NCBI GenBank assembly: GCA_964468895.1
Contig: CAYXWT010000039.1
Location: 1-7,106, forward strand
DNA from: an uncultured archaeon
Lineage (GTDB): Archaea; Iainarchaeota; Iainarchaeia; Iainarchaeales; CSSED10-239
Reading direction: 5' to 3'
Length of the DNA stretch: 7,106 bases
Shown: in pieces, positions 1-7,106 of the stretch
Position numbering within the stretch: position 1 is the stretch's first letter
Layout of the letters: each line of letters opens with the position of its first letter
Made by a program: the position numbers and the translations under genes
The notes under the pieces: generated by a model
The model's database searches: none
What the model was told of the DNA's origin: nothing
The model's input: the letters and a program-made list of their open reading frames with translations, nothing else

Positions 1-158
1 ATAATTATAAAAATTTAAAACCTCCTTTAAATCAATTTAAAAGAGTTCATATTACTCAACAATTTGTATTAATTTTTCAAGTAGATACTAAAACTAATTC
101 TATTTTATTTGTATATTTTGATCATAGAAAAAATGTTTATAAAGATTTGAAACTTTAG
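1..158 (+). CDS. 3' end of a RelE/ParE-superfamily type II toxin gene, 5'-truncated by the window edge
   Basis: Frame 3 (codons from nt 3) is open from the window edge to TAG at 156-158. It reads NYKNLKPPLNQFKRVHITQQFVLIFQVDTKTNSILFVYFDHRKNVYKDLKL*. The pattern F-K-R-V-H-I ... F-V-L-I-F-x-V-D ... I-L-F ... H-R-K-N-V-Y resembles the C-terminal signature of RelE/StbE/YafQ-type mRNA interferases (compare archaeal RelE ...YRIRVGNYRI...HRKxIY). It is absent from the ORF track because no start codon lies in the window. Recognised from memory only. Confidence 0.45.
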   Translation, partial: NYKNLKPPLNQFKRVHITQQFVLIFQVDTKTNSILFVYFDHRKNVYKDLKL

Positions 159-164
159 TTAAAT

Positions 165-692
165 TTAAAGTTTGTTTATTATTGCCATTTTTTCTATAAT
201 TTGATCTTCTATATCTTTTTTAGATTTTATATTATAAAATCTAAGGGCTTTATTTTGATTATATTTTTCTATTTTTAATTCTTTTAAATCTAAATTGTTT
301 GTAATTTTATTAATATCTTTTGTAGTTATTTCTTTTGAACTTACAATTTCTAAGAAAACATTATTTTTACCTTTTTTAATAAAAAATCCTTTGTCTATTT
401 TGTTTAACTGATTGCTACAATTTAAAGTTAAAAGTATTTCATTTTTAAGATTTTTAGAAGTGTTAATTTTATCAAATATTCTATTTTTGGATATAAATAT
501 AGCCCATAACAGGTGATTTTTACTGTATATTTGTGTGTTTGGTATTATTAATATGTCTAAATAAGATTTTTTATCATTTTTTTGATCTTCAATTCTTTTT
601 AAATAGTTTTCTATATTATTAATATTTATAGATCCATAAATATTATATATAAAGATCTTCTTTTTTCCTAAACTAAAATAATGTTTGTTCAT
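165..692 (-). CDS. cgi121: KEOPS complex subunit Cgi121 (kinase-binding protein CGI-121 family)
   Basis: This is a 175-aa ORF. The core HLLWAIFISKNRIFDKINTSKNLKNEILLTLNCSNQLNKIDKGFFIKKGKNNVFLEIV parallels the conserved Cgi121/TPRKB block (human ...[46 protein letters not shown]; M. jannaschii ...HVLHAINQAKTKKPIAKSFWMEILVRASGQRQIHEAIKIIGAKDGNVCLI). The C-terminal helix DIEDQIIEKMAIINKL parallels ...VERVLEKIALIELKK. Size fits the family. Confidence 0.65.
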   Translation of the reverse strand: MNKHYFSLGKKKIFIYNIYGSININNIENYLKRIEDQKNDKKSYLDILIIPNTQIYSKNHLLWAIFISKNRIFDKINTSKNLKNEILLTLNCSNQLNKIDKGFFIKKGKNNVFLEIVSSKEITTKDINKITNNLDLKELKIEKYNQNKALRFYNIKSKKDIEDQIIEKMAIINKL

Positions 693-715
693 AATATTAT
701 TAGTATTTGAAAAAA

Positions 716-723
716 TATATAAA
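716..723 (-). promoter_or_regulatory. Candidate archaeal TATA box for cgi121, implying a leaderless transcript
   Basis: The plus strand reads TATATAAA, which is TTTATATA on the minus strand and matches the archaeal TATA consensus. Its centre lies about 26-27 nt upstream of the ATG at 692, so the predicted TSS falls on or next to the start codon. No Shine-Dalgarno-like purine run lies between them. AT-rich background makes chance matches likely. Confidence 0.3.
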
Positions 724-798
724 TTCTTGCATGTTTAAATAAAATCATGTAAACAGTTAAAAAAATATAAAATGATAAATAAAAGTAAAATTATACTT

Positions 799-805
799 AG
801 GGTGA
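799..805 (+). promoter_or_regulatory. Shine-Dalgarno-like ribosome-binding site for the S8e gene
   Basis: AGGGTGA lies 7 nt upstream of ATG 813. It has one mismatch to GAGGTGA, the complement of the archaeal 16S 3' end. It is one of very few G-rich strings in this intergenic region. Confidence 0.5.
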
Positions 806-812
806 AAATAAT

Positions 813-1208
813 ATGGTTGAATGGAGAAAAAAATCAAAAAGAAAATCAACAGGCGGCATTAATAACGCTACAAATAGAAAAACAAAATCTTTAAGTGATA
901 GAGGTGGACTTTTTTCTAAAACTGTTGTTGATGAAGATAGTAAAAGATACAAAGTTAGAACTATTGGTGGCGGTAGTAAAACAAAATTAGCAAAGACAAA
1001 TGATATTTTGGTTTCTAGTGGTGCTAAAACTATTAAATGTAAAATTGTAGGTGTTGAAAATAATTCTGCAAATAAACATTTTGTAAGACAAAAAGTAGTA
1101 ACTAAAGGTGCTATCTTAAAGGTTGAATTAGAAGGTAAAGAGACTAAAGTTAAAGTAACTAGTAGACCTGGTCAAAGTGGTCAAGTAAGTGGAATTGTTA
1201 TAAAATAG
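813..1208 (+). CDS. rps8e: 30S ribosomal protein S8e
   Basis: This is a 131-aa ORF. The N-terminus W-x-K-K-S-K-R-K-S-T-GG matches the S8e signature W(Q/H)xxSxRKxTGG. The internal KVRTIGGGSKTKL corresponds to the canonical (R/K)VRxRGGNxKxR(A/L) block. The C-terminus VTSRPGQSGQVSGIVI matches (V/I)TSRPGQDGxxNAVL. The preceding RBS and the higher local GC than neighbouring genes fit a highly expressed housekeeping gene. Confidence 0.9.
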   Translation: MVEWRKKSKRKSTGGINNATNRKTKSLSDRGGLFSKTVVDEDSKRYKVRTIGGGSKTKLAKTNDILVSSGAKTIKCKIVGVENNSANKHFVRQKVVTKGAILKVELEGKETKVKVTSRPGQSGQVSGIVIK

Positions 1209-1237
1209 ATCTAAATGATCTATTTATATTATTTTTT
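1206..1237 (+). terminator. Short hairpin plus oligo-T tract immediately after the S8e stop codon
   Basis: TAGATC (1206-1211), a TAAAT loop, then GATCTA (1217-1222) form a perfect 6-bp inverted repeat overlapping the TAG stop. TTTATATTATTTTTT follows, including a T6 run at 1232-1237. Oligo-T tracts are the usual archaeal termination signal. The stem is short and AT-rich, so this is weak. Confidence 0.3.
1222..1229 (+). promoter_or_regulatory. Candidate TATA box for the archaeosortase-like gene, with a leaderless or near-leaderless transcript
   Basis: The centre of TTTATATT lies about 26-29 nt upstream of ATG 1255. No SD-like motif occurs in CTAATTCTTAATTTATA just before the start. Composition makes a chance occurrence plausible. 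Confidence 0.25.
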
Positions 1238-1254
1238 CTAATTCTTAATTTATA

Positions 1255-1827
1255 ATGACATTTAAAAAAAATAGAAATTTGTTTTCTTTAAAACAAATAA
1301 AAAAAGATTTAAAAAATAAAAAAGAACTTAAAAAGTCCTTTATTTTTTTAATTTATTTTTTAGTTATATTTGTAGTTGTTTATTTATTTTTAAATAATGT
1401 GCTTTATAATTATATTAATTATTGTTATGGTTTTATTTCTAATTTTATAATTTCAAATATGTTTGGTATAAATACCAGTTTTATATTTGATGATATTAAT
1501 CTTATTTCTGTAATACTTATTAATTCTTTAAATTATCCTGTATTTATAACTTTTTTATGTACTGGTATATTAGAATTTTCTTTAATAAGTTCTGCAATAT
1601 TAGCTTCCAAAGGTATTAGTTTAAAAAATAGAATTTATGGTTTTTTACTTAGTATTCCTTTAGTAATTGTATTTAATATTTTTAGAATAGTTTGTACAAT
1701 TTTAATGATAATTTATTTTTCATTACCATTAGCAGAGTTTTTACATTCTTTTTTATTTAGATTATTTTTAATAATAATTGTAATTGGTTTTTATTATTTC
1801 TGGTTTAAATTTTATTATAATAAATAA
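1255..1827 (+). CDS. Exosortase/archaeosortase-family integral membrane transpeptidase, minimal 190-aa form
   Basis: The protein has a Lys-rich N-terminus followed by about 5 hydrophobic helices. Family-type motifs occur in the right order at helix ends: F-L-C-T-G (Cys102, nt 1558-1560), N-I-F-R-I (Asn141/Arg144, nt 1675-1686) and E-F-L-H-S (His164, nt 1744-1746). The Cys-to-Arg spacing of 42 residues is about what I recall for Haloferax ArtA (Cys173/Arg214). A candidate substrate gene with a C-terminal motif + TM + basic tail lies nearby. Confidence 0.6.
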   Translation: MTFKKNRNLFSLKQIKKDLKNKKELKKSFIFLIYFLVIFVVVYLFLNNVLYNYINYCYGFISNFIISNMFGINTSFIFDDINLISVILINSLNYPVFITFLCTGILEFSLISSAILASKGISLKNRIYGFLLSIPLVIVFNIFRIVCTILMIIYFSLPLAEFLHSFLFRLFLIIIVIGFYYFWFKFYYNK

Positions 1828-1839
1828 GAATAAGAATAT

Positions 1840-2226
1840 TTAAGATTTACTATCTTTAATTAGTTTTTTTACTTGTTCAACTGTTGTATATTCTAATGGA
1901 TTTATGTTTTCTATAATATACTTCATTTCTTTTAATTCTTCAGCTTTAGCAAATCTTTTTGTAAAAAGTTCCATGTTTGTTTCTAAGGATCTAATTTTTT
2001 TTGTAATTTTATCTTGTTGATCTAATATTTCAGTAATTTTAGAGTTATCAATATCACTGTTGGAAGATCCACTGCTTTTGGATGCAATTTTTTTATTTAA
2101 AATTAAAATATTTCTTCCAAGTATTTTTTCATTATGTACTAAATATTTAATTTTTTGAGATAATACAAGTATACTTGATTGTAATGCTTTAATATCTTGC
2201 ATTATTCCTGGTTGTTCATCACTCAT
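1840..2226 (-). CDS. Hypothetical coiled-coil protein, 128 aa, no predicted TM segment or signal peptide
   Basis: The ORF is complete and convergent with the sortase-like gene (12-nt gap) and divergent from the surface-protein gene. It has two heptad-like helical segments, IMQDIKALQSSILVLSQKIKYLVHNEKILGRNILILNKKI and ITEILDQQDKITKKIRSLETNMELFTKRFAKAEELKEMKYII. These are separated by a Ser-rich linker, SKSSGSSNSDIDNS. I recognise no family. Confidence 0.55.
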   Translation of the reverse strand: MSDEQPGIMQDIKALQSSILVLSQKIKYLVHNEKILGRNILILNKKIASKSSGSSNSDIDNSKITEILDQQDKITKKIRSLETNMELFTKRFAKAEELKEMKYIIENINPLEYTTVEQVKKLIKDSKS

Positions 2227-2356
2227 GATTTATCTAAGTTTAATTTATATATTATATATGTTAGTTTGTAATATTTATATTTATTTGCTTTTTATTTAAA
2301 TTTGATATTAAGAGTTATTTTTTAGTTTTTCTGCCTTAATTCTTTAAAAAAGTACA

Positions 2357-2364
2357 TTTATAAA
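2357..2364 (+). promoter_or_regulatory. Candidate TATA box for the large surface-protein gene
   Basis: TTTATAAA is preceded by the A-rich, BRE-like AAAAAAGTAC. The predicted TSS near 2387 would give a roughly 20-nt leader containing the AGGT RBS. Specificity is low in this composition. Confidence 0.25.
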
Positions 2365-2392
2365 CTATTTCATAGATATATTATTTATTAAT

Positions 2393-2399
2393 GGTAGGT
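2393..2399 (+). promoter_or_regulatory. Shine-Dalgarno-like site for the surface-protein gene
   Basis: In GGTAGGT, the AGGT at 2396-2399 lies 8 nt upstream of GTG 2408. The next in-frame ATG (2417) would be 17 nt away. This supports the GTG start given in the ORF track. Confidence 0.4.
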
Positions 2400-2407
2400 A
2401 GTTAATT

Positions 2408-2497
2408 GTGATTGTTATGATTTTAAAAATAAAAAAAATATTTACTTTATTAATGTTATCTATTTGTTTAATTATATTTACAAATAATATATTTGCA
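2408..2497 (+). other. N-terminal Sec-type signal peptide of the surface protein
   Basis: MIVMILKIKK is the basic n-region, IFTLLMLSICLIIF the hydrophobic core and TNNIFA/IS the small-residue cleavage context. The cleavage position is estimated by eye. Confidence 0.6.
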
Positions 2498-5449
2498 ATA
2501 TCTTTAAATATAGATTCTTTTCAAGTAAGAACAGATTCCTATAATTTTTATGATAATGTACAGCAAGGTAACTATTATGATAATGTAGATTTGAAGATGA
2601 ATTTTTCTATAGATCAATTACTATCTAATAATAATTATTTACCTGTATTATTAAATTCAAAAATATATGGTTTACTTCCAAATGGCCAAATAGTTTTAAT
2701 AGATGTAATGCCTACTATGCATCATAATATTTATTCAACTAATATTGAAGAATACTTCTCAAATAATTTATTTTATTTAGATCCCAGTTTTGCAGCTTAC
2801 ATGATTTCTTTAAATATAAATTCTTTAGATAATTCTTATTCTGATGTAGATTATGCTTATATTTTTTCAGATTATACAATTTATGAAAATTTTTATGATG
2901 AAGATTATTTTGAAGATTTTGAAGATTCAGAAAATCCTAATTCAAATGAAGATGATGATTTGCCAGATGATGAATTTGAAGATGATTTTAGTTTAAGTGG
3001 TGTTCAAGATTTTTATTTAGATGAAGATGAAAAAGAAGATTATAAATTATATCTTAAAAATAATTCAGATGAAGAACTTCAAATAATTTCTATAACTACT
3101 AATGAACCTACAAGATTAGATGTAGAAGATATTGATTATTCTGAGTTTATTAATAGTGATTCAACAGCTACTATTACTTTAGAATTATTAAGTGATACTG
3201 TAAGTAGTGATTATACTGGTGAATTAGAAATAAATGTAATGGCTAGATATTTAGAACAAGATGATATTAGTAAAACTTATGTTTCTAATTATCATATTGA
3301 AGATGAAGATTCTCAAAATACAAGTGATTGTTCAGATTTAGAAATAGACAATTCTAGATTTACTATAAATGATAATTTTATTAGTAATTTAGAAATAATT
3401 TTAATAAATGAAAGTGATGATTATTATTTTGAATTAGATGAAGTTAATATTGAATCTGATTCAATATTAGAAACAAAGGTTGTAAATTTTACTGAAGAAA
3501 TTGATGAAGAAAGTAATGGTGTTATTAATTTAGAAGTTATTAGTGATGATATTTCTAATAATACTACTAGAACTATTGAACTTGAAATTGAAGGTTATTT
3601 TAAAAGAGAAAATAGAGATTCAGAAAAGTGTAGAATTTCAAAAAATTTAAGAATAAATGTTGAGGATAATTCTTCTAATGAAGATAATTCTACCTCTCAA
3701 ACTAATTGTAACAATTTAATTTTATTTACTCCAAGTATTATTCAAGAAGAAAATACTATTAAAAACTATAATAAAAACAAAGGTTTTTTTGTAATAAATA
3801 ATAGTAATAAAGAATTTACTATTACTAATCTAATAATAAGTGATAATACTTCTAAATCAACACTTTCTAAAAATATAAGTTCTACTAAAATTTACGCAAA
3901 TTCAGATTTGTCTTTAGATTTTGATTTACAAACTAATGAAATTACTAATAATTTAATTTATTCAAAAGCAAATGTTTCTATAAGTGGAACTTTTTCAGAT
4001 GGTAGTATTTGTAATGCATTAGACACTAAACAAAATTTTGATTTATCAATAGTTAGTTCTGAAGATAAATGTTCTAAAATTGGATTAAGATCCAAAATAA
4101 TAACCACAGGTAATAATACTATTACTTTATTTAATAATTCAGATTTGTCTTTTTATGTTACTGATTTTTTAGAAGCAAATAAATTTAATTTAGAATCTAA
4201 TGTTAATTCTGTTCAGCATACTATTGAAAAAAATAAAACTAAAGATGTTAGTGTTGGTTTTTCAGGAAATGGATCTTTAGAATTAAAATTAAATGGAGTA
4301 TTTTCAGATGGAACTAATTGTTCATTTAGTGAAACTAGAAGTGGAATATTTGCTTCAACAAATATTTCAGAAATTGATTTTGCTGCAAATATAGATAATT
4401 GTTCATTTCAATTAGAGGTTCCTAGTTATTTAGAGATAGACGATTCTTATGAAACTATTAATTTAAATTTTAAAAATTTAAGTGTTAATGGTGGAAAAAT
4501 AACTTTAATAGGAAATGGAGTTGTAGTAAATCCATCTATAATTTATTTAGATGGTCAAGACGATTTTCAAAAAAACATAGTTATTTCTAATTTTTATGAA
4601 CCAGAAAGTGTTTTTTATAATGTTAAATTAAATGGTTGTGAAACAAAAACAGATTTTACTAATTTAGAAGAAAAAATAGATGTTTCTAAAAGAATTTATT
4701 TTGTTAGTTACCCTAATTTATTAAAGCCAAGTTCTAAATTAGTTGTTGTTGATTTAGAAATTAATAATTCTTATAATACTAAACAAAATATTAAACTTAA
4801 AGTTAGTGGATTTCCTTCTAGTTGGACTATTGAATCTAAAGATGTTCTTTTAAATGAAAGAACTTCTAATACTTTAAATTATTCATTTTATATAGATGAT
4901 TTAAATAATTCTAAAAAATACAATGGTTATATTGAAATTTATAAAAATAATTTAAAAATTAATTCTGTACCTTTAACTGTTGATTTAACTAAACCTACTA
5001 AAGAACTAATAATGAAATCTAGTTTAAGTAAATTAAATAGTTTAGAAAATACTTATGCTTTAGAGTTGTTTATAAATAATAAAAGTAATTCTTCTAAAGA
5101 ATATGTTGTTGATTTTAATTTAGATGGAAATTATGTTGTTGAAGGTAATAAAGAAATTAATTTGTTAGCTGATGAAAATAAAACTATAGAATATAAAATT
5201 GTTACTTTTGCTTTATTGAAAGATAGTTCTGTTATTGATGTTATTATAAAAGATAAAGTTAGTGGTGAAGAATTAGAATCTTCAGAATTAGTTTATACTT
5301 TAGAGAACAATGTTGGTTTAACTGGATTTTTAGTTTTTAATAGTTTATTAACAGAAATTGGACTTGCTATTGTTTTAATAATTATAATTATTAGTATAAT
5401 TATACAAATCAAAAAAAACAAAATTTCTAAAAATAAACCTAAAATTTAG
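2408..5449 (+). CDS. Large secreted cell-surface (S-layer-like) glycoprotein candidate and putative archaeosortase substrate
   Basis: This is a 1013-aa ORF. It begins with a signal peptide (KIKKIFTLLMLSICLIIFTNNIFA) and a roughly 130-aa N-terminal domain. A hyper-acidic linker follows, then a series of roughly 80-100-aa beta-sandwich-like modules. These have alternating hydrophobic patterns of the CARDB/NEW3 kind, e.g. LVVVDLEINNSYNTKQNIKLKVSGFPSSWTIES at nt 4739-4837. I hand-counted about 27 N-x-S/T sequons. The C-terminus is GLTGF, a hydrophobic helix and a KKNKISKNKPKI tail. No enzymatic motif was recognised. Confidence 0.8.
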   Translation: MIVMILKIKKIFTLLMLSICLIIFTNNIFAISLNIDSFQVRTDSYNFYDNVQQGNYYDNVDLKMNFSIDQLLSNNNYLPVLLNSKIYGLLPNGQIVLIDVMPTMHHNIYSTNIEEYFSNNLFYLDPSFAAYMISLNINSLDNSYSDVDYAYIFSDYTIYENFYDEDYFEDFEDSENPNSNEDDDLPDDEFEDDFSLSGVQDFYLDEDEKEDYKLYLKNNSDEELQIISITTNEPTRLDVEDIDYSEFINSDSTATITLELLSDTVSSDYTGELEINVMARYLEQDDISKTYVSNYHIEDEDSQNTSDCSDLEIDNSRFTINDNFISNLEIILINESDDYYFELDEVNIESDSILETKVVNFTEEIDEESNGVINLEVISDDISNNTTRTIELEIEGYFKRENRDSEKCRISKNLRINVEDNSSNEDNSTSQTNCNNLILFTPSIIQEENTIKNYNKNKGFFVINNSNKEFTITNLIISDNTSKSTLSKNISSTKIYANSDLSLDFDLQTNEITNNLIYSKANVSISGTFSDGSICNALDTKQNFDLSIVSSEDKCSKIGLRSKIITTGNNTITLFNNSDLSFYVTDFLEANKFNLESNVNSVQHTIEKNKTKDVSVGFSGNGSLELKLNGVFSDGTNCSFSETRSGIFASTNISEIDFAANIDNCSFQLEVPSYLEIDDSYETINLNFKNLSVNGGKITLIGNGVVVNPSIIYLDGQDDFQKNIVISNFYEPESVFYNVKLNGCETKTDFTNLEEKIDVSKRIYFVSYPNLLKPSSKLVVVDLEINNSYNTKQNIKLKVSGFPSSWTIESKDVLLNERTSNTLNYSFYIDDLNNSKKYNGYIEIYKNNLKINSVPLTVDLTKPTKELIMKSSLSKLNSLENTYALELFINNKSNSSKEYVVDFNLDGNYVVEGNKEINLLADENKTIEYKIVTFALLKDSSVIDVIIKDKVSGEELESSELVYTLENNVGLTGFLVFNSLLTEIGLAIVLIIIIISIIIQIKKNKISKNKPKI
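2894..3040 (+). other. Hyper-acidic, aromatic-studded linker in the surface protein
   Basis: The segment translates to YDEDYFEDFEDSENPNSNEDDDLPDDEFEDDFSLSGVQDFYLDEDEKED. More than half of the residues are D or E, interspersed with F/Y and with only one basic residue (a single Lys). Confidence 0.8.
3329..4639 (+). repeat. Four divergent tandem protein modules, each bracketed by a cysteine pair, arising from internal duplication in the surface-protein gene
   Basis: All 8 cysteines of the mature protein lie here: TGT codons at 3329, 3629, 3707, 4010, 4070, 4319, 4400 and 4637. Their spacings alternate long and short: 100, 26, 101, 20, 83, 27 and 79 residues. Modules start C-x-x-[LI]-x-[LIV] (CSDLEI, CNNLIL, CSKIGL, CSFQLE). 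They end [ILV]-x-G-x-F...C (IEGYFKRENRDSEKC, ISGTFSDGSIC, LNGVFSDGTNC, and the more diverged VKLNGC, which keeps only the G...C). DNA-level relics survive: identical TTCAGATTTGTCTTT at 3901-3915 and 4138-4152, and TTTTCAGATGG at 3992-4002 and 4301-4311. Confidence 0.65.
5315..5446 (+). other. C-terminal tripartite sorting-signal candidate: motif, TM helix and basic tail
   Basis: The segment reads G-L-T-G-F-LVFNSLLTE-IGLAIVLIIIIISIIIQI-KKNKISKNKPKI*. A short Gly/aromatic motif (TGF codons at 5321-5329) is followed by an 18-residue hydrophobic helix and a Lys-rich cytoplasmic tail at the extreme C-terminus. This is the architecture recognised by sortases, exosortases and archaeosortases. Confidence 0.55.
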
Positions 5450-5562
5450 AAAACACTTAAAATAATGGTTTGTTTTGTAAAATAGAAAAGAATATATATT
5501 AAAATATACTTCTAATATATAACAAAGGCTTTAATTAAGTAATTGTAGTTAATTAAAAATTT

Positions 5563-5568
5563 GAGGTG
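5563..5568 (+). promoter_or_regulatory. Shine-Dalgarno site for the M6 metalloprotease gene
   Basis: GAGGTG perfectly complements the archaeal anti-SD core and lies 9 nt upstream of ATG 5578. Confidence 0.6.
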
Positions 5569-5577
5569 TTGGATTTT

Positions 5578-7106
5578 ATGAATTATAAGAAAATTGTATT
5601 TTCTTGTTTTGTATTTGTAATAACTGTTTGTTTTTTAACAAATTTTATTAATTCTGAGATTGCAATAGATAATAGTGCCCCCAAATTTAAAAATAATAAT
5701 AATGGTGAACTAACATTTTATTCTAATAGTTCAAGTTTAAAATTAAACAAAACTTCCATTTCAACTTATTCTTCTAAACCTGCTGATTTATCTGAAGCTT
5801 CTAAAAAATTAAATTCTAATTCTGAAAAAAAAATTATTTCTAAAAAAGAAAAATTCGATACCATTGATTTTAGTGAATTAAATTTAGATATATTTTCATT
5901 TTTAAATGTAAATGTAGAAGAACCACATGTTGATTATGACTTAGTTGATGAATTAAGTAATGATTTATTATTTCCTCCTGAAGAAGTGATTTCAAAGGAA
6001 GAATACACAGAATTATTAAGATTAGCAGCAAGTAATAGAGATCCTCCAATAAATTCTAATTCAAATACTACTGTTCCAAATTTAACAGGGACTTGTCCTA
6101 CTACTGGTGAGATACACATTCCAGTTTTATTAGTTGATTTTGCTGATCAACCACATACATTAGAAAGTACTGTTTATGAAGATATGTATAATTCAGATAA
6201 TTATTTGGATGATTCTGGAATAAGTGTAAAGGATTATTATTTACATGAATCTTATGGTTCACTTAATTTTGTTTTTGATATTTATGATTGGCAAACACTA
6301 AGTAATAATACTTATGAGTATTATAGAAATACATCTTCTACTCAATGGGAAATGATGTTAGATACTATTAATTTATTTGATAGTAATGTAGATTTTAGTC
6401 AATATGATAATGATGGTGATGGAAGATTAGATGGAATAGTTATAATACCAGCAGGAAATAATAGTTCAACTTATGGAATAAGATCACATGTTAGAATATT
6501 AAAAGAATATGATAGTAATCCTGTTGATGGAAAATATCTTGGAAATACAGCTTTAATTCCAGAAATAAGTTCAGGAAGTGCTTGTTATCCTGAAGATTGT
6601 AGGACTGTTGTAAATACTGTTACTCATGAAATGGGTCATATATTAGGACTTCCAGATCTTTATGAAATAAATCCAACAACTGGAGCTCAAGAAGGTTTAG
6701 GTATAAATGCATTAAGTATGATGAGTTGGACAAGTACTAATTCTCAAAAACCTATAAATTTAGATCCTTGGAGTAGATTTTATTTAGGTTGGTTAGAAGG
6801 TACTTTTATAGGTACATATGGTCCAAGTATGCAAGAAAATGAAGATCTTTGTAATGATACTATCCAAACACTTAGAAGTGTAAATGATTATCCTGATTTA
6901 GTAGTAGTAAGTTCAAATCATTTAAATGATAGAGAATTCTTTTTGGTGGAAAACAGATTTGTAGATGTAGATGATCCTAATAATTTGGATGTTGGTAATG
7001 ATATGGTTGTAGATCCTGATGATGAATTTGGACATTTAGGTTTAGCAATATATCATATAGATGAACAATATATTGAAGATAATTTTTTAACAAACAGTAT
7101 TGCTCA
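5578..7106 (+). CDS. Secreted M6-family (immune inhibitor A-like) zinc metalloprotease, 3'-truncated by the window edge
   Basis: I translated this by hand in frame 1; it is open from ATG 5578 to the window end (509 full codons). It is absent from the ORF track because it has no stop in the window. The signal peptide is MNYKKIVFSCFVFVITVCFLTNFINS. M6-domain hallmarks appear in order: TGEIHIPVLLVDFADQ, VKDYYLHESYGSLNF, VDFSQYDNDGDGRLDGIVII, THEMGHILGLPDLY and LDPWSRFYLGWL. Confidence 0.85.
   Translation, partial: MNYKKIVFSCFVFVITVCFLTNFINSEIAIDNSAPKFKNNNNGELTFYSNSSSLKLNKTSISTYSSKPADLSEASKKLNSNSEKKIISKKEKFDTIDFSELNLDIFSFLNVNVEEPHVDYDLVDELSNDLLFPPEEVISKEEYTELLRLAASNRDPPINSNSNTTVPNLTGTCPTTGEIHIPVLLVDFADQPHTLESTVYEDMYNSDNYLDDSGISVKDYYLHESYGSLNFVFDIYDWQTLSNNTYEYYRNTSSTQWEMMLDTINLFDSNVDFSQYDNDGDGRLDGIVIIPAGNNSSTYGIRSHVRILKEYDSNPVDGKYLGNTALIPEISSGSACYPEDCRTVVNTVTHEMGHILGLPDLYEINPTTGAQEGLGINALSMMSWTSTNSQKPINLDPWSRFYLGWLEGTFIGTYGPSMQENEDLCNDTIQTLRSVNDYPDLVVVSSNHLNDREFFLVENRFVDVDDPNNLDVGNDMVVDPDDEFGHLGLAIYHIDEQYIEDNFLTNSIA
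6625..6663 (+). other. Zinc-binding / catalytic HExxH motif of the M6 protease
   Basis: The codons read H-E-M-G-H-I-L-G-L-P-D-L-Y. This matches the M6 consensus HE(F/M)GHxLGLPDxY. Confidence 0.85.

Follow-up and report, generated by a model that had tools for sequence, protein, structure and literature searches.

A minimal archaeosortase and its probable giant surface-protein substrate in an Iainarchaeota lineage

Which genes of a compact archaeal locus belong together in building the cell surface? The question is raised by a stretch of 7,106 nucleotides (nt) from an uncultured archaeon (assembly GCA_964468895.1, contig CAYXWT010000039.1, positions 1 to 7,106 of the forward strand; hereafter the window). 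A preliminary description had read four consecutive open reading frames (ORFs) in it as one envelope module consisting of a mini-sortase, a coiled-coil protein, a giant surface protein and a secreted M6 protease. Our analysis points to a smaller conserved unit of two genes, a minimal archaeosortase and its cognate giant substrate, which probably anchors the main envelope or surface-layer (S-layer) protein; we assign this reading a probability of roughly 70%.

The window has a GC content of 21.7% and encodes six genes. At this composition a stop is expected at about one codon in 10, so the four ORFs, all of which were found where they had been placed, are not chance open frames (probabilities of 5 × 10−46, 2 × 10−23, 3 × 10−9 and 2 × 10−6 for 1013, 509, 190 and 128 codons, respectively). 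Conserved homologues were found for each of them. The nearest named relatives are metagenome-assembled genomes of Iainarchaeota (Diapherotrites), including the complete genome of Ca. Forterrea multitransposorum, in agreement with the earlier suggestion of a small-genome archaeon.

The archaeosortase-family enzyme and the tail of the giant protein

The gene at positions 1255–1827 (+ strand) encodes a polytopic membrane protein of 190 amino acids (aa) that matched the exosortase/archaeosortase model TIGR04178 with 43.5 bits against a cutoff of 23 (residues 98–186). PF09721 was weak in the window enzyme and was recorded for many of its orthologues, and no sortase model was listed for the protein in the Pfam and NCBIfam scans. 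Judged from its sequence, the protein is a member of the exosortase/archaeosortase family, which is unrelated to the sortase family. The earlier label of a mini-sortase, meaning a putative anchoring transpeptidase, needs correction on this point. A family assignment was obtained, and the catalytic Cys, Arg and His are all kept. These residues are Cys102 (nt 1558–1560), Arg144 (nt 1684–1686) and His164 (nt 1744–1746); together with N141 and E107 they were invariant among 33 close homologues and in a mixed set of 36 close and distant homologues reaching down to 27% identity. Several hydrophobic segments above threshold lie between residues 23 and 188, indicating a multi-pass protein as judged by hydropathy. 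The 42 close homologues measured 108–211 aa, nearly all of them 173–194 aa.

None of the named Art or Xrt models in NCBIfam reached its cutoff with the window enzyme. XrtG was the sole subfamily model listed (12.8 bits against a cutoff of 102.75, residues 27–184, E = 0.08), and no named Art model (ArtA–ArtE, pacearchaeosortase, heimdallarchaeosortase) appeared at E ≤ 1. A profile search of 1.84 billion representative proteins returned 437 clusters at E ≤ 0.001, including 167 at E ≤ 1 × 10−10, and the clusters listed were nearly all 160–225 aa long. The Iainarchaeota clade formed a single cluster, beyond which the score fell sharply from 252 to 115 bits, and none of the ten out-of-clade relatives scanned reached a named-family cutoff. 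Since all named subfamily models score far below cutoff, sequence comparison places the enzyme most naturally in an archaeosortase subfamily that so far has no name and that has a distinct sorting motif. A protein this small is no exception, given that models of 150–190 positions exist for many of the named subfamilies. One protein of the representative library (P0203, 1102 aa) carries a complete mini-archaeosortase domain at residues 6–182 followed by an Ala/Gly-rich region of ~900 aa, and may be a real fusion or a gene-calling artefact. It was considered as an enzyme–substrate fusion and set aside, its Ala/Gly-rich tail being unlike the giant protein.

The giant surface protein (1013 aa) is encoded at positions 2408–5449 (+). 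Its start is more probably the ATG at 2417 than the GTG at 2408, because the orthologue P0044 aligns from that Met. Residues 1–30 (nt 2408–2497) form a predicted signal peptide, called from a hydrophobic segment that AlphaFold2 (AF2) modelled as a helix at residues 3–26. It ends in ...NNIFA before ISLN, so that cleavage would be expected after NNIFA, and orthologues with the N-terminal domain show a similar succession of K-rich, hydrophobic and small residues. A lipobox in this signal peptide was considered and rejected: LSIC has Ile at −1, and orthologues do not keep the motif.

At its other end, the protein finishes with ...NNVG-LTGFLVF-NS-LLTEIGLAIVLIIIIISIIIQI-KKNKISKNKPKI. This tail comprises the sorting motif LTGFLVF (residues 971–977, nt 5318–5338; consensus [LI][TS][GA]F[LF]x[LF]), a transmembrane (TM) helix (residues 980–1001, nt 5345–5410; hydropathy peak 3.0, AF2 helix 980–1006) and the basic cytoplasmic tail KKNKISKNKPKI (residues 1002–1013, nt 5411–5446). 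By sequence pattern, the three elements correspond to the tripartite signal typical of archaeosortase/exosortase targets. All 14 distinct complete orthologues matched by a pattern scan carried motif, TM segment and Lys/Arg cluster, a combination absent from all further ORFs (≥100 aa) in the ~300 kb of Iainarchaeota-type loci scanned. Isolated orthologue tails reached the cutoff of no named CTERM model. Their best sub-threshold matches were Heimdall-CTERM (15.2 bits, cutoff 24), PEF-CTERM (13.2, cutoff 23) and LPXTG (13.4, cutoff 15.9); PGF-CTERM was not listed for them, and the window's own tail matched no CTERM model.

No Pfam or NCBIfam family was found for the giant protein. It is acidic (164 Asp + Glu against 78 Lys + Arg), contains 27 N-X-S/T sequons, slightly above the 21 expected from its composition, and has a single C-terminal hydrophobic helix by hydropathy. 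An AF2 model built from six sequences (mean pLDDT 72) was all-beta, with about eight beta-sandwich domains between the signal helix and the terminal TM helix, and LTGFLVF was placed in a disordered, low-pLDDT linker (residues 966–984). The preliminary description had proposed a Foldseek search of the surface protein; against the PDB, its top 50 matches were generic tandem Ig/MG/ASH arrays with TM-scores of at most 0.21, and no specific S-layer or adhesin fold was among them. A homologue search returned six proteins, with low-complexity words saturating the candidates, and orthologues from fetched loci were used instead. These measured 803–1047 aa, occupied the same position in every related locus that reached that far, kept the Cys pairs and the N-terminal domain across the clade, and occurred as one copy in each locus examined. 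In being secreted, large and built of multiple beta-sandwich domains with a membrane-anchor segment, the giant protein fits the general description of archaeal S-layer proteins.

Gene order around the enzyme in near and distant relatives

We compared loci obtained by exact-match look-ups and by a scan of one genome per species, together with the close metagenomic locus L028. Every Iainarchaeota-type locus that was long enough, including that of the complete Ca. Forterrea genome, showed the order Cgi121 (−), S8e, archaeosortase, coiled-coil (−), giant, and wherever such a locus was long enough to include both, the archaeosortase and giant genes stood together. Between the archaeosortase and coiled-coil genes lie 0–1.2 kb of differing inserted genes, and the gene downstream of the giant gene varies among lineages. 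Among relatives, the coiled-coil protein (median identity 64%) and S8e (62%) are more conserved than the enzyme (54%) and the giant protein (33%).

The enzyme gene lies close behind the gene for ribosomal protein S8e. The gap between them measures 46 nt in the window (1209–1254), against −4 to +20 nt in most relatives; the short distance in these relatives suggests that the two genes are probably co-transcribed. In three relatives (L013, L017 and L019) the two genes overlap by 4 nt at the S8e stop, and in most others the gap is 5–20 nt. It is unusual for a membrane-enzyme gene to lie, as it apparently does here, within a ribosomal-protein transcription unit.

Metagenome contigs were also scanned with an alignment of mini-archaeosortases 27–34% identical to the window enzyme, in which the catalytic Cys, Arg and His are likewise invariant. 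Eleven distant loci (GC 0.31–0.58) had enough downstream sequence; their enzymes are 27–42% identical to the window enzyme and their contexts unrelated. S8e or the coiled-coil gene was nearby in none of the 11, and the M6 protease was not kept. In all 11, counted without a redundancy check and with most of the ORFs in question cut by contig ends, a large same-strand ORF (745 to >2634 aa) starts within ~2 kb downstream of the archaeosortase gene. The sole complete one, in L030, encodes 1680 aa; its product has a signal peptide, contains LamG and Calx-beta domains and shows RK after a C-terminal TM segment. CarboxypepD_reg or MG3-type beta-sandwich domains occur in four others, and the ORF of L043 has Amidase_3, PKD and glucosaminidase domains, a C-terminal TM segment being absent. 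Because the link between enzyme and large downstream ORF survives complete turnover of the neighbourhood, it argues for a functional pair and not for a frozen gene order. The earlier idea of an enzyme and its likely substrate gains from these comparisons, given the conserved tripartite tail, the joint occurrence of the two genes in all adequate loci and the large ORF in the distant ones. The gene-neighbourhood comparison proposed at the same time came out in two ways: the archaeosortase/giant pair was conserved, whereas the position of the protease was not.

A pair of ORFs of ~760–825 aa was also noted a few kb upstream of the mini-archaeosortase in six loci (L030, L032, L035, L043, L046 and L048), mostly on the opposite strand and on the same strand in L048. 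Pfam identified the pair in L030 as a type IV pilus-like ATPase (T2SSE) and a platform protein (T2SSF), and the pairs in the other five loci were identified by similar size and shared C-terminal sequence. Together with the mini-archaeosortase, this pair may form a recurrent surface-apparatus locus outside Iainarchaeota.

Possible function of the pair and its precedents

We propose that the giant protein would be exported by Sec via its N-terminal signal peptide and held transiently in the membrane by the C-terminal TM helix and Lys-rich tail. The archaeosortase would recognize the [LI][TS][GA]F motif just outside the membrane, and its Cys102/Arg144/His164 site would cleave off the TM segment near the motif. 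The C-terminus so created would then be joined to a membrane lipid, on the model of Haloferax ArtA and its PGF-CTERM S-layer glycoprotein. The giant protein seems somewhat more probable as the main envelope or S-layer protein than as a specialized adhesin, in view of its single copy per locus, acidic composition, length of ~1000 aa, constant size and position, beta-sandwich array and ribosomal-protein neighbourhood, and of the coupling of the enzyme gene to S8e.

Archaeosortases with dedicated targets form an established class, and two NCBIfam models (NF033505 and NF033506) appear from their names to describe such a pair, so the earlier remark that no description of this arrangement was known goes too far. 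The locus represents no new type of system; the pair is of a known kind. The best-described precedent is ArtA, which processes the Haloferax S-layer glycoprotein and also a substrate with its tripartite signal located away from the very C-terminus; a 2018 review placed archaeosortases in a subset of Euryarchaeota (PMC6098224). Like Haloferax volcanii ArtA, the window enzyme has the superfamily signature with Cys, Arg and His, and the giant protein and the PGF-CTERM S-layer glycoprotein are both large, secreted and of beta-sandwich (Ig-like) architecture, each with a tripartite tail of G-F motif, TM segment and basic residues; TM removal and lipid anchoring are predicted for the window pair as in the ArtA system. 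Unlike ArtA, the window enzyme has 190 aa against a model of 271 positions and scores below the ArtA cutoff, and its presumed recognition motif is [LI][TS][GA]F and not PGF. A further difference from the ArtA system is that enzyme and substrate genes are neighbours, the enzyme gene is apparently co-transcribed with S8e, and the host belongs to the DPANN archaea.

The closest conceptual precedent is given by pacearchaeosortase (NF033505, 167 positions) and PACE-CTERM-PROT (NF033506, "putative S-layer protein"), which, from the model names only, appear to be a DPANN enzyme–target pair. By name, they share with the window pair the combination of a DPANN mini archaeosortase and a large putative S-layer protein. 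In contrast to them, the window enzyme has no match to NF033505, the giant tail scored 6.9 bits against the NF033506 cutoff of 110, and motif and substrate family differ. ArtB, ArtD, ArtE, XrtG, XrtH, XrtM, XrtX and XrtY (150–187 positions) resemble the window enzyme in minimal size and conserved C-terminal core, whereas the window enzyme and its nearest out-group relatives fall far below the curated cutoffs of these families.

In the library searched, we found no paper on archaeosortases in Iainarchaeota/Diapherotrites or other DPANN archaea, none on pacearchaeosortase and none naming an S-layer protein for Iainarchaeota. The pair thus supplies concrete candidates for the main envelope protein of Iainarchaeota (Diapherotrites) and for its anchoring enzyme, and would extend archaeosortase-type C-terminal processing to DPANN archaea with the new recognition motif [LI][TS][GA]F. 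The association of the enzyme with a very large downstream ORF across deep divergence could provide a simple rule by which the major surface proteins of uncultivated archaea with small genomes are annotated.

Several points weigh against an anchored envelope protein of this kind. Cleavage and lipidation are argued entirely by analogy with ArtA, while the motif reads TGF, SAF or TAF and not PGF, and all named CTERM models stay below cutoff. The giant protein showed no homology to the MSTP/DUF1608-like, halobacterial csg or PACE-CTERM-PROT S-layer families, and MSTP-like S-layer proteins have been reported for other DPANN phyla (preprint 10.1101/2024.05.28.596244). The close-range synteny, taken by itself, could reflect the generally conserved gene order of the clade. 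The large ORFs of the 11 distant loci are without sequence homology to the window giant protein, and possible redundancy among these loci counts here as well. The archaeosortase may have other substrates beyond the ~300 kb scanned. Finally, the Forterrea-like giant orthologues (L007, L016, L022, L024 and L025) carry an extra cytoplasmic tail of 45–60 aa after the TM segment, which ends in the conserved motif [KR][QE][IV]T[LF]x[ED][LV]D. This suggests a role of its own for an uncleaved TM anchor or for a released fragment.

Conservation of this motif is unexpected for a segment supposedly removed by the archaeosortase.

The alternative that survives best keeps the same pair and changes its purpose: the giant protein would be a host-contact adhesin, or the archaeosortase would shed it rather than attach it to a lipid. 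We regard this as possible, with the odds against it. Host-dependent DPANN archaea typically have giant surface proteins of beta-sandwich build, and in the distant loci the enzyme is accompanied by LamG, Calx-beta and PKD proteins of far greater size as well as by genes for a type IV pilus-like ATPase and platform. The rapid divergence of the giant orthologues, at a median identity of 33%, and the lack of homology to known S-layer families point the same way. However, adhesins are usually multi-copy and variable in architecture, whereas these orthologues retain their length (803–1047 aa), Cys pairs, N-terminal domain and genomic position, and occur once per locus examined in a housekeeping neighbourhood with the enzyme gene apparently coupled to S8e.

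A bolder extension of the anchoring model appears unlikely as a whole. Mini-archaeosortases would then be a DPANN-wide class, represented by the 437 clusters at E ≤ 0.001, with each enzyme dedicated to one downstream giant beta-sandwich protein. The Iainarchaeota pair would be wired into ribosomal-protein operons and would build a lipid-anchored S-layer of an unrecognized family, and the tail motif and the coiled-coil protein would form a possible cytoplasmic checkpoint of envelope assembly. If this were true, the anchor would need scavenged lipid, as the organisms are thought to depend on partners for membrane lipids.

It is improbable that the two genes are coincidental neighbours, with the giant protein anchored by its own TM segment, the archaeosortase serving unlinked substrates and the order frozen near ribosomal clusters. 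Such a reading draws on the general conservation of regional gene order across the clade (Cgi121, S8e, L1/L10/P1, helicase), on the conserved cytoplasmic tail of Forterrea-like orthologues, which hints at a retained anchor, and on the substrate scan having covered individual loci. Yet the pair persists despite insertions of 0–1.2 kb between its genes and differing downstream genes, archaeosortases of 27–42% identity elsewhere still precede large ORFs with secreted-protein features, and the motif before the TM segment is conserved well beyond the needs of a plain anchor.

The coiled-coil gene, the M6 protease and other neighbours

That all four genes constitute a single host-contact or envelope-remodelling module, with the protease maturing the surface protein or attacking host envelopes and the coiled-coil protein serving as adaptor, is very improbable. 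In its favour stand the adjacency of the genes in the window, the signal peptide and ribosome-binding-site-like GAGGTG of the protease, the recurrence of the protease after the giant gene in L005, and the position of the coiled-coil gene between the pair in all Iainarchaeota-type loci examined. Against it, the protease occurs at this position in no other relative examined and is without a sorting tail, the coiled-coil protein is encoded on the opposite strand, has no membrane or secretion feature and adjoins DNA polymerase B in a distant relative, and the distant loci keep the large downstream ORF with neither gene. The preliminary description had seen all four genes as pointing to the cell surface. 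This does not hold for the coiled-coil protein, and the proposed four-gene module breaks down with protease synteny confined to L001 and L005 and the coiled-coil gene decoupled in the distant relative.

The coiled-coil gene (1840–2226, −) runs towards the archaeosortase gene and away from the giant gene. Its 128-aa product is helical, with two long helices in the AF2 model (residues 6–52 and 61–107), and hydropathy revealed neither a TM segment nor a signal peptide. Scans of Pfam and NCBIfam gave only sub-threshold generic coiled-coil matches, a profile search of PDB sequences gave only GCN4-type coiled coils, and Foldseek with the AF2 model gave nothing. Across Iainarchaeota-type relatives the protein is 59–91% identical, as conserved as a ribosomal protein, with the near-invariant blocks DIKALQSS..L..K.KYLVHNEKILGRN and LKEMKY..D.INPLE. 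A homologue of 45% identity (P0139), located on a 719 kb contig, adjoins DNA polymerase B, and the 20 kb examined around it contained no archaeosortase ORF. The gene behaves like an essential-like cytoplasmic housekeeping gene that is merely located between the pair in this lineage, and its product is a candidate essential protein. The AT-rich divergent intergenic region at 2227–2407, recognized from the sequence, presumably holds the promoters of both the coiled-coil and the giant genes. In Forterrea-like relatives the corresponding region measures ~580–610 bp and contains an extra Tyr-rich secreted ORF.

The M6-type metalloprotease gene (5578–7106, +) runs off the end of the window. Its ATG at 5578 is preceded by GAGGTG at 5563–5568, 9 nt upstream, in line with the ribosome-binding site of its own that had been noted for it. 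The product matched the M6 models TIGR03296 (119.7 bits, cutoff 110.8) and PF05547 (27 bits, cutoff 22), and its HEXXH motif is HEMGH (residues 350–354, nt 6625–6639). No related solved structure was found by sequence search. The 10.2 kb contig L001, from the window's lineage, provides the full-length protease of 635 aa, which ends in ...CAIQNVEDYCASNLN (also given as ...DTSCAIQNVEDYCASNLN). The proposed check of this C-terminus for the sorting tail of the giant protein was negative: the full-length protein has no C-terminal TM segment or tripartite tail, and its sole hydrophobic segment is N-terminal. Like immune inhibitor A/M6 proteases of the InhA and PrtV type, it has domain models above cutoff, HEMGH and an N-terminal secretion signal. 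Unlike them, it has a very divergent Pfam match (27 bits), an archaeal host, no C-terminal sorting domain and a position beside the giant gene that is not conserved.

Of the loci examined, only L001 and L005, a relative at 77% identity, have a protease homologue behind the giant gene. Most other relatives have the L3-L4-L23-L2-S19 ribosomal operon directly after the giant gene. In L011 and L017 the genes that come next encode proteins bearing a class III (pilin-like) signal. The protease is a lineage-specific secreted enzyme whose gene occupies a variable position, with the giant gene on one side and the L3 operon on the other. Proteins with class III (type IV pilin-like) signals, for example MKNKNAQISLEILAILGIVILG, are encoded at 9609–10205 in L001, after the protease, at 14977–15429 in L011 and at 14927–16573 in L017. 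The assignment was made by motif in L001, where there was no Pfam match, and L011 and L017 gave weak sub-cutoff matches to PF04021.

The remaining genes of the window are those for Cgi121, a KEOPS subunit (165–692, −), and for ribosomal protein S8e (813–1208, +), which matched PF01201 with 70.4 bits and TIGR00307 with 75.9 bits, slightly below the cutoff of 78.25. Rfam and tRNA scans of the window revealed no RNA genes.

The Tyr-rich secreted ORF of Forterrea-like relatives, which is not in the window, encodes 118–131 aa directly upstream of the giant gene (L007 10443–10799; L009 10086–10463; L015 11082–11450; L022 3505–3870; L024 5330–5722; L025 11749–12144). Its product consists of a signal peptide, FDVTDISYSYV..., a Tyr-rich low-complexity region and ...FSWQ, and its N-terminal motif is similar to the N-terminus of the giant protein. 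In L021 (2682–3122) the same position is occupied by a Tyr-rich secreted ORF of 146 aa without the FDVTDISYSYV and FSWQ motifs. One sub-clade has a basic helical protein of ~262–277 aa, of no known family, encoded between the archaeosortase and coiled-coil genes (L011 10541–11374; L013 10497–11321; L018 2437–3267; L019 2313–3101; L020 10570–11391). In L013, L017 and L019 this insert is accompanied by a partner of ~146 aa.

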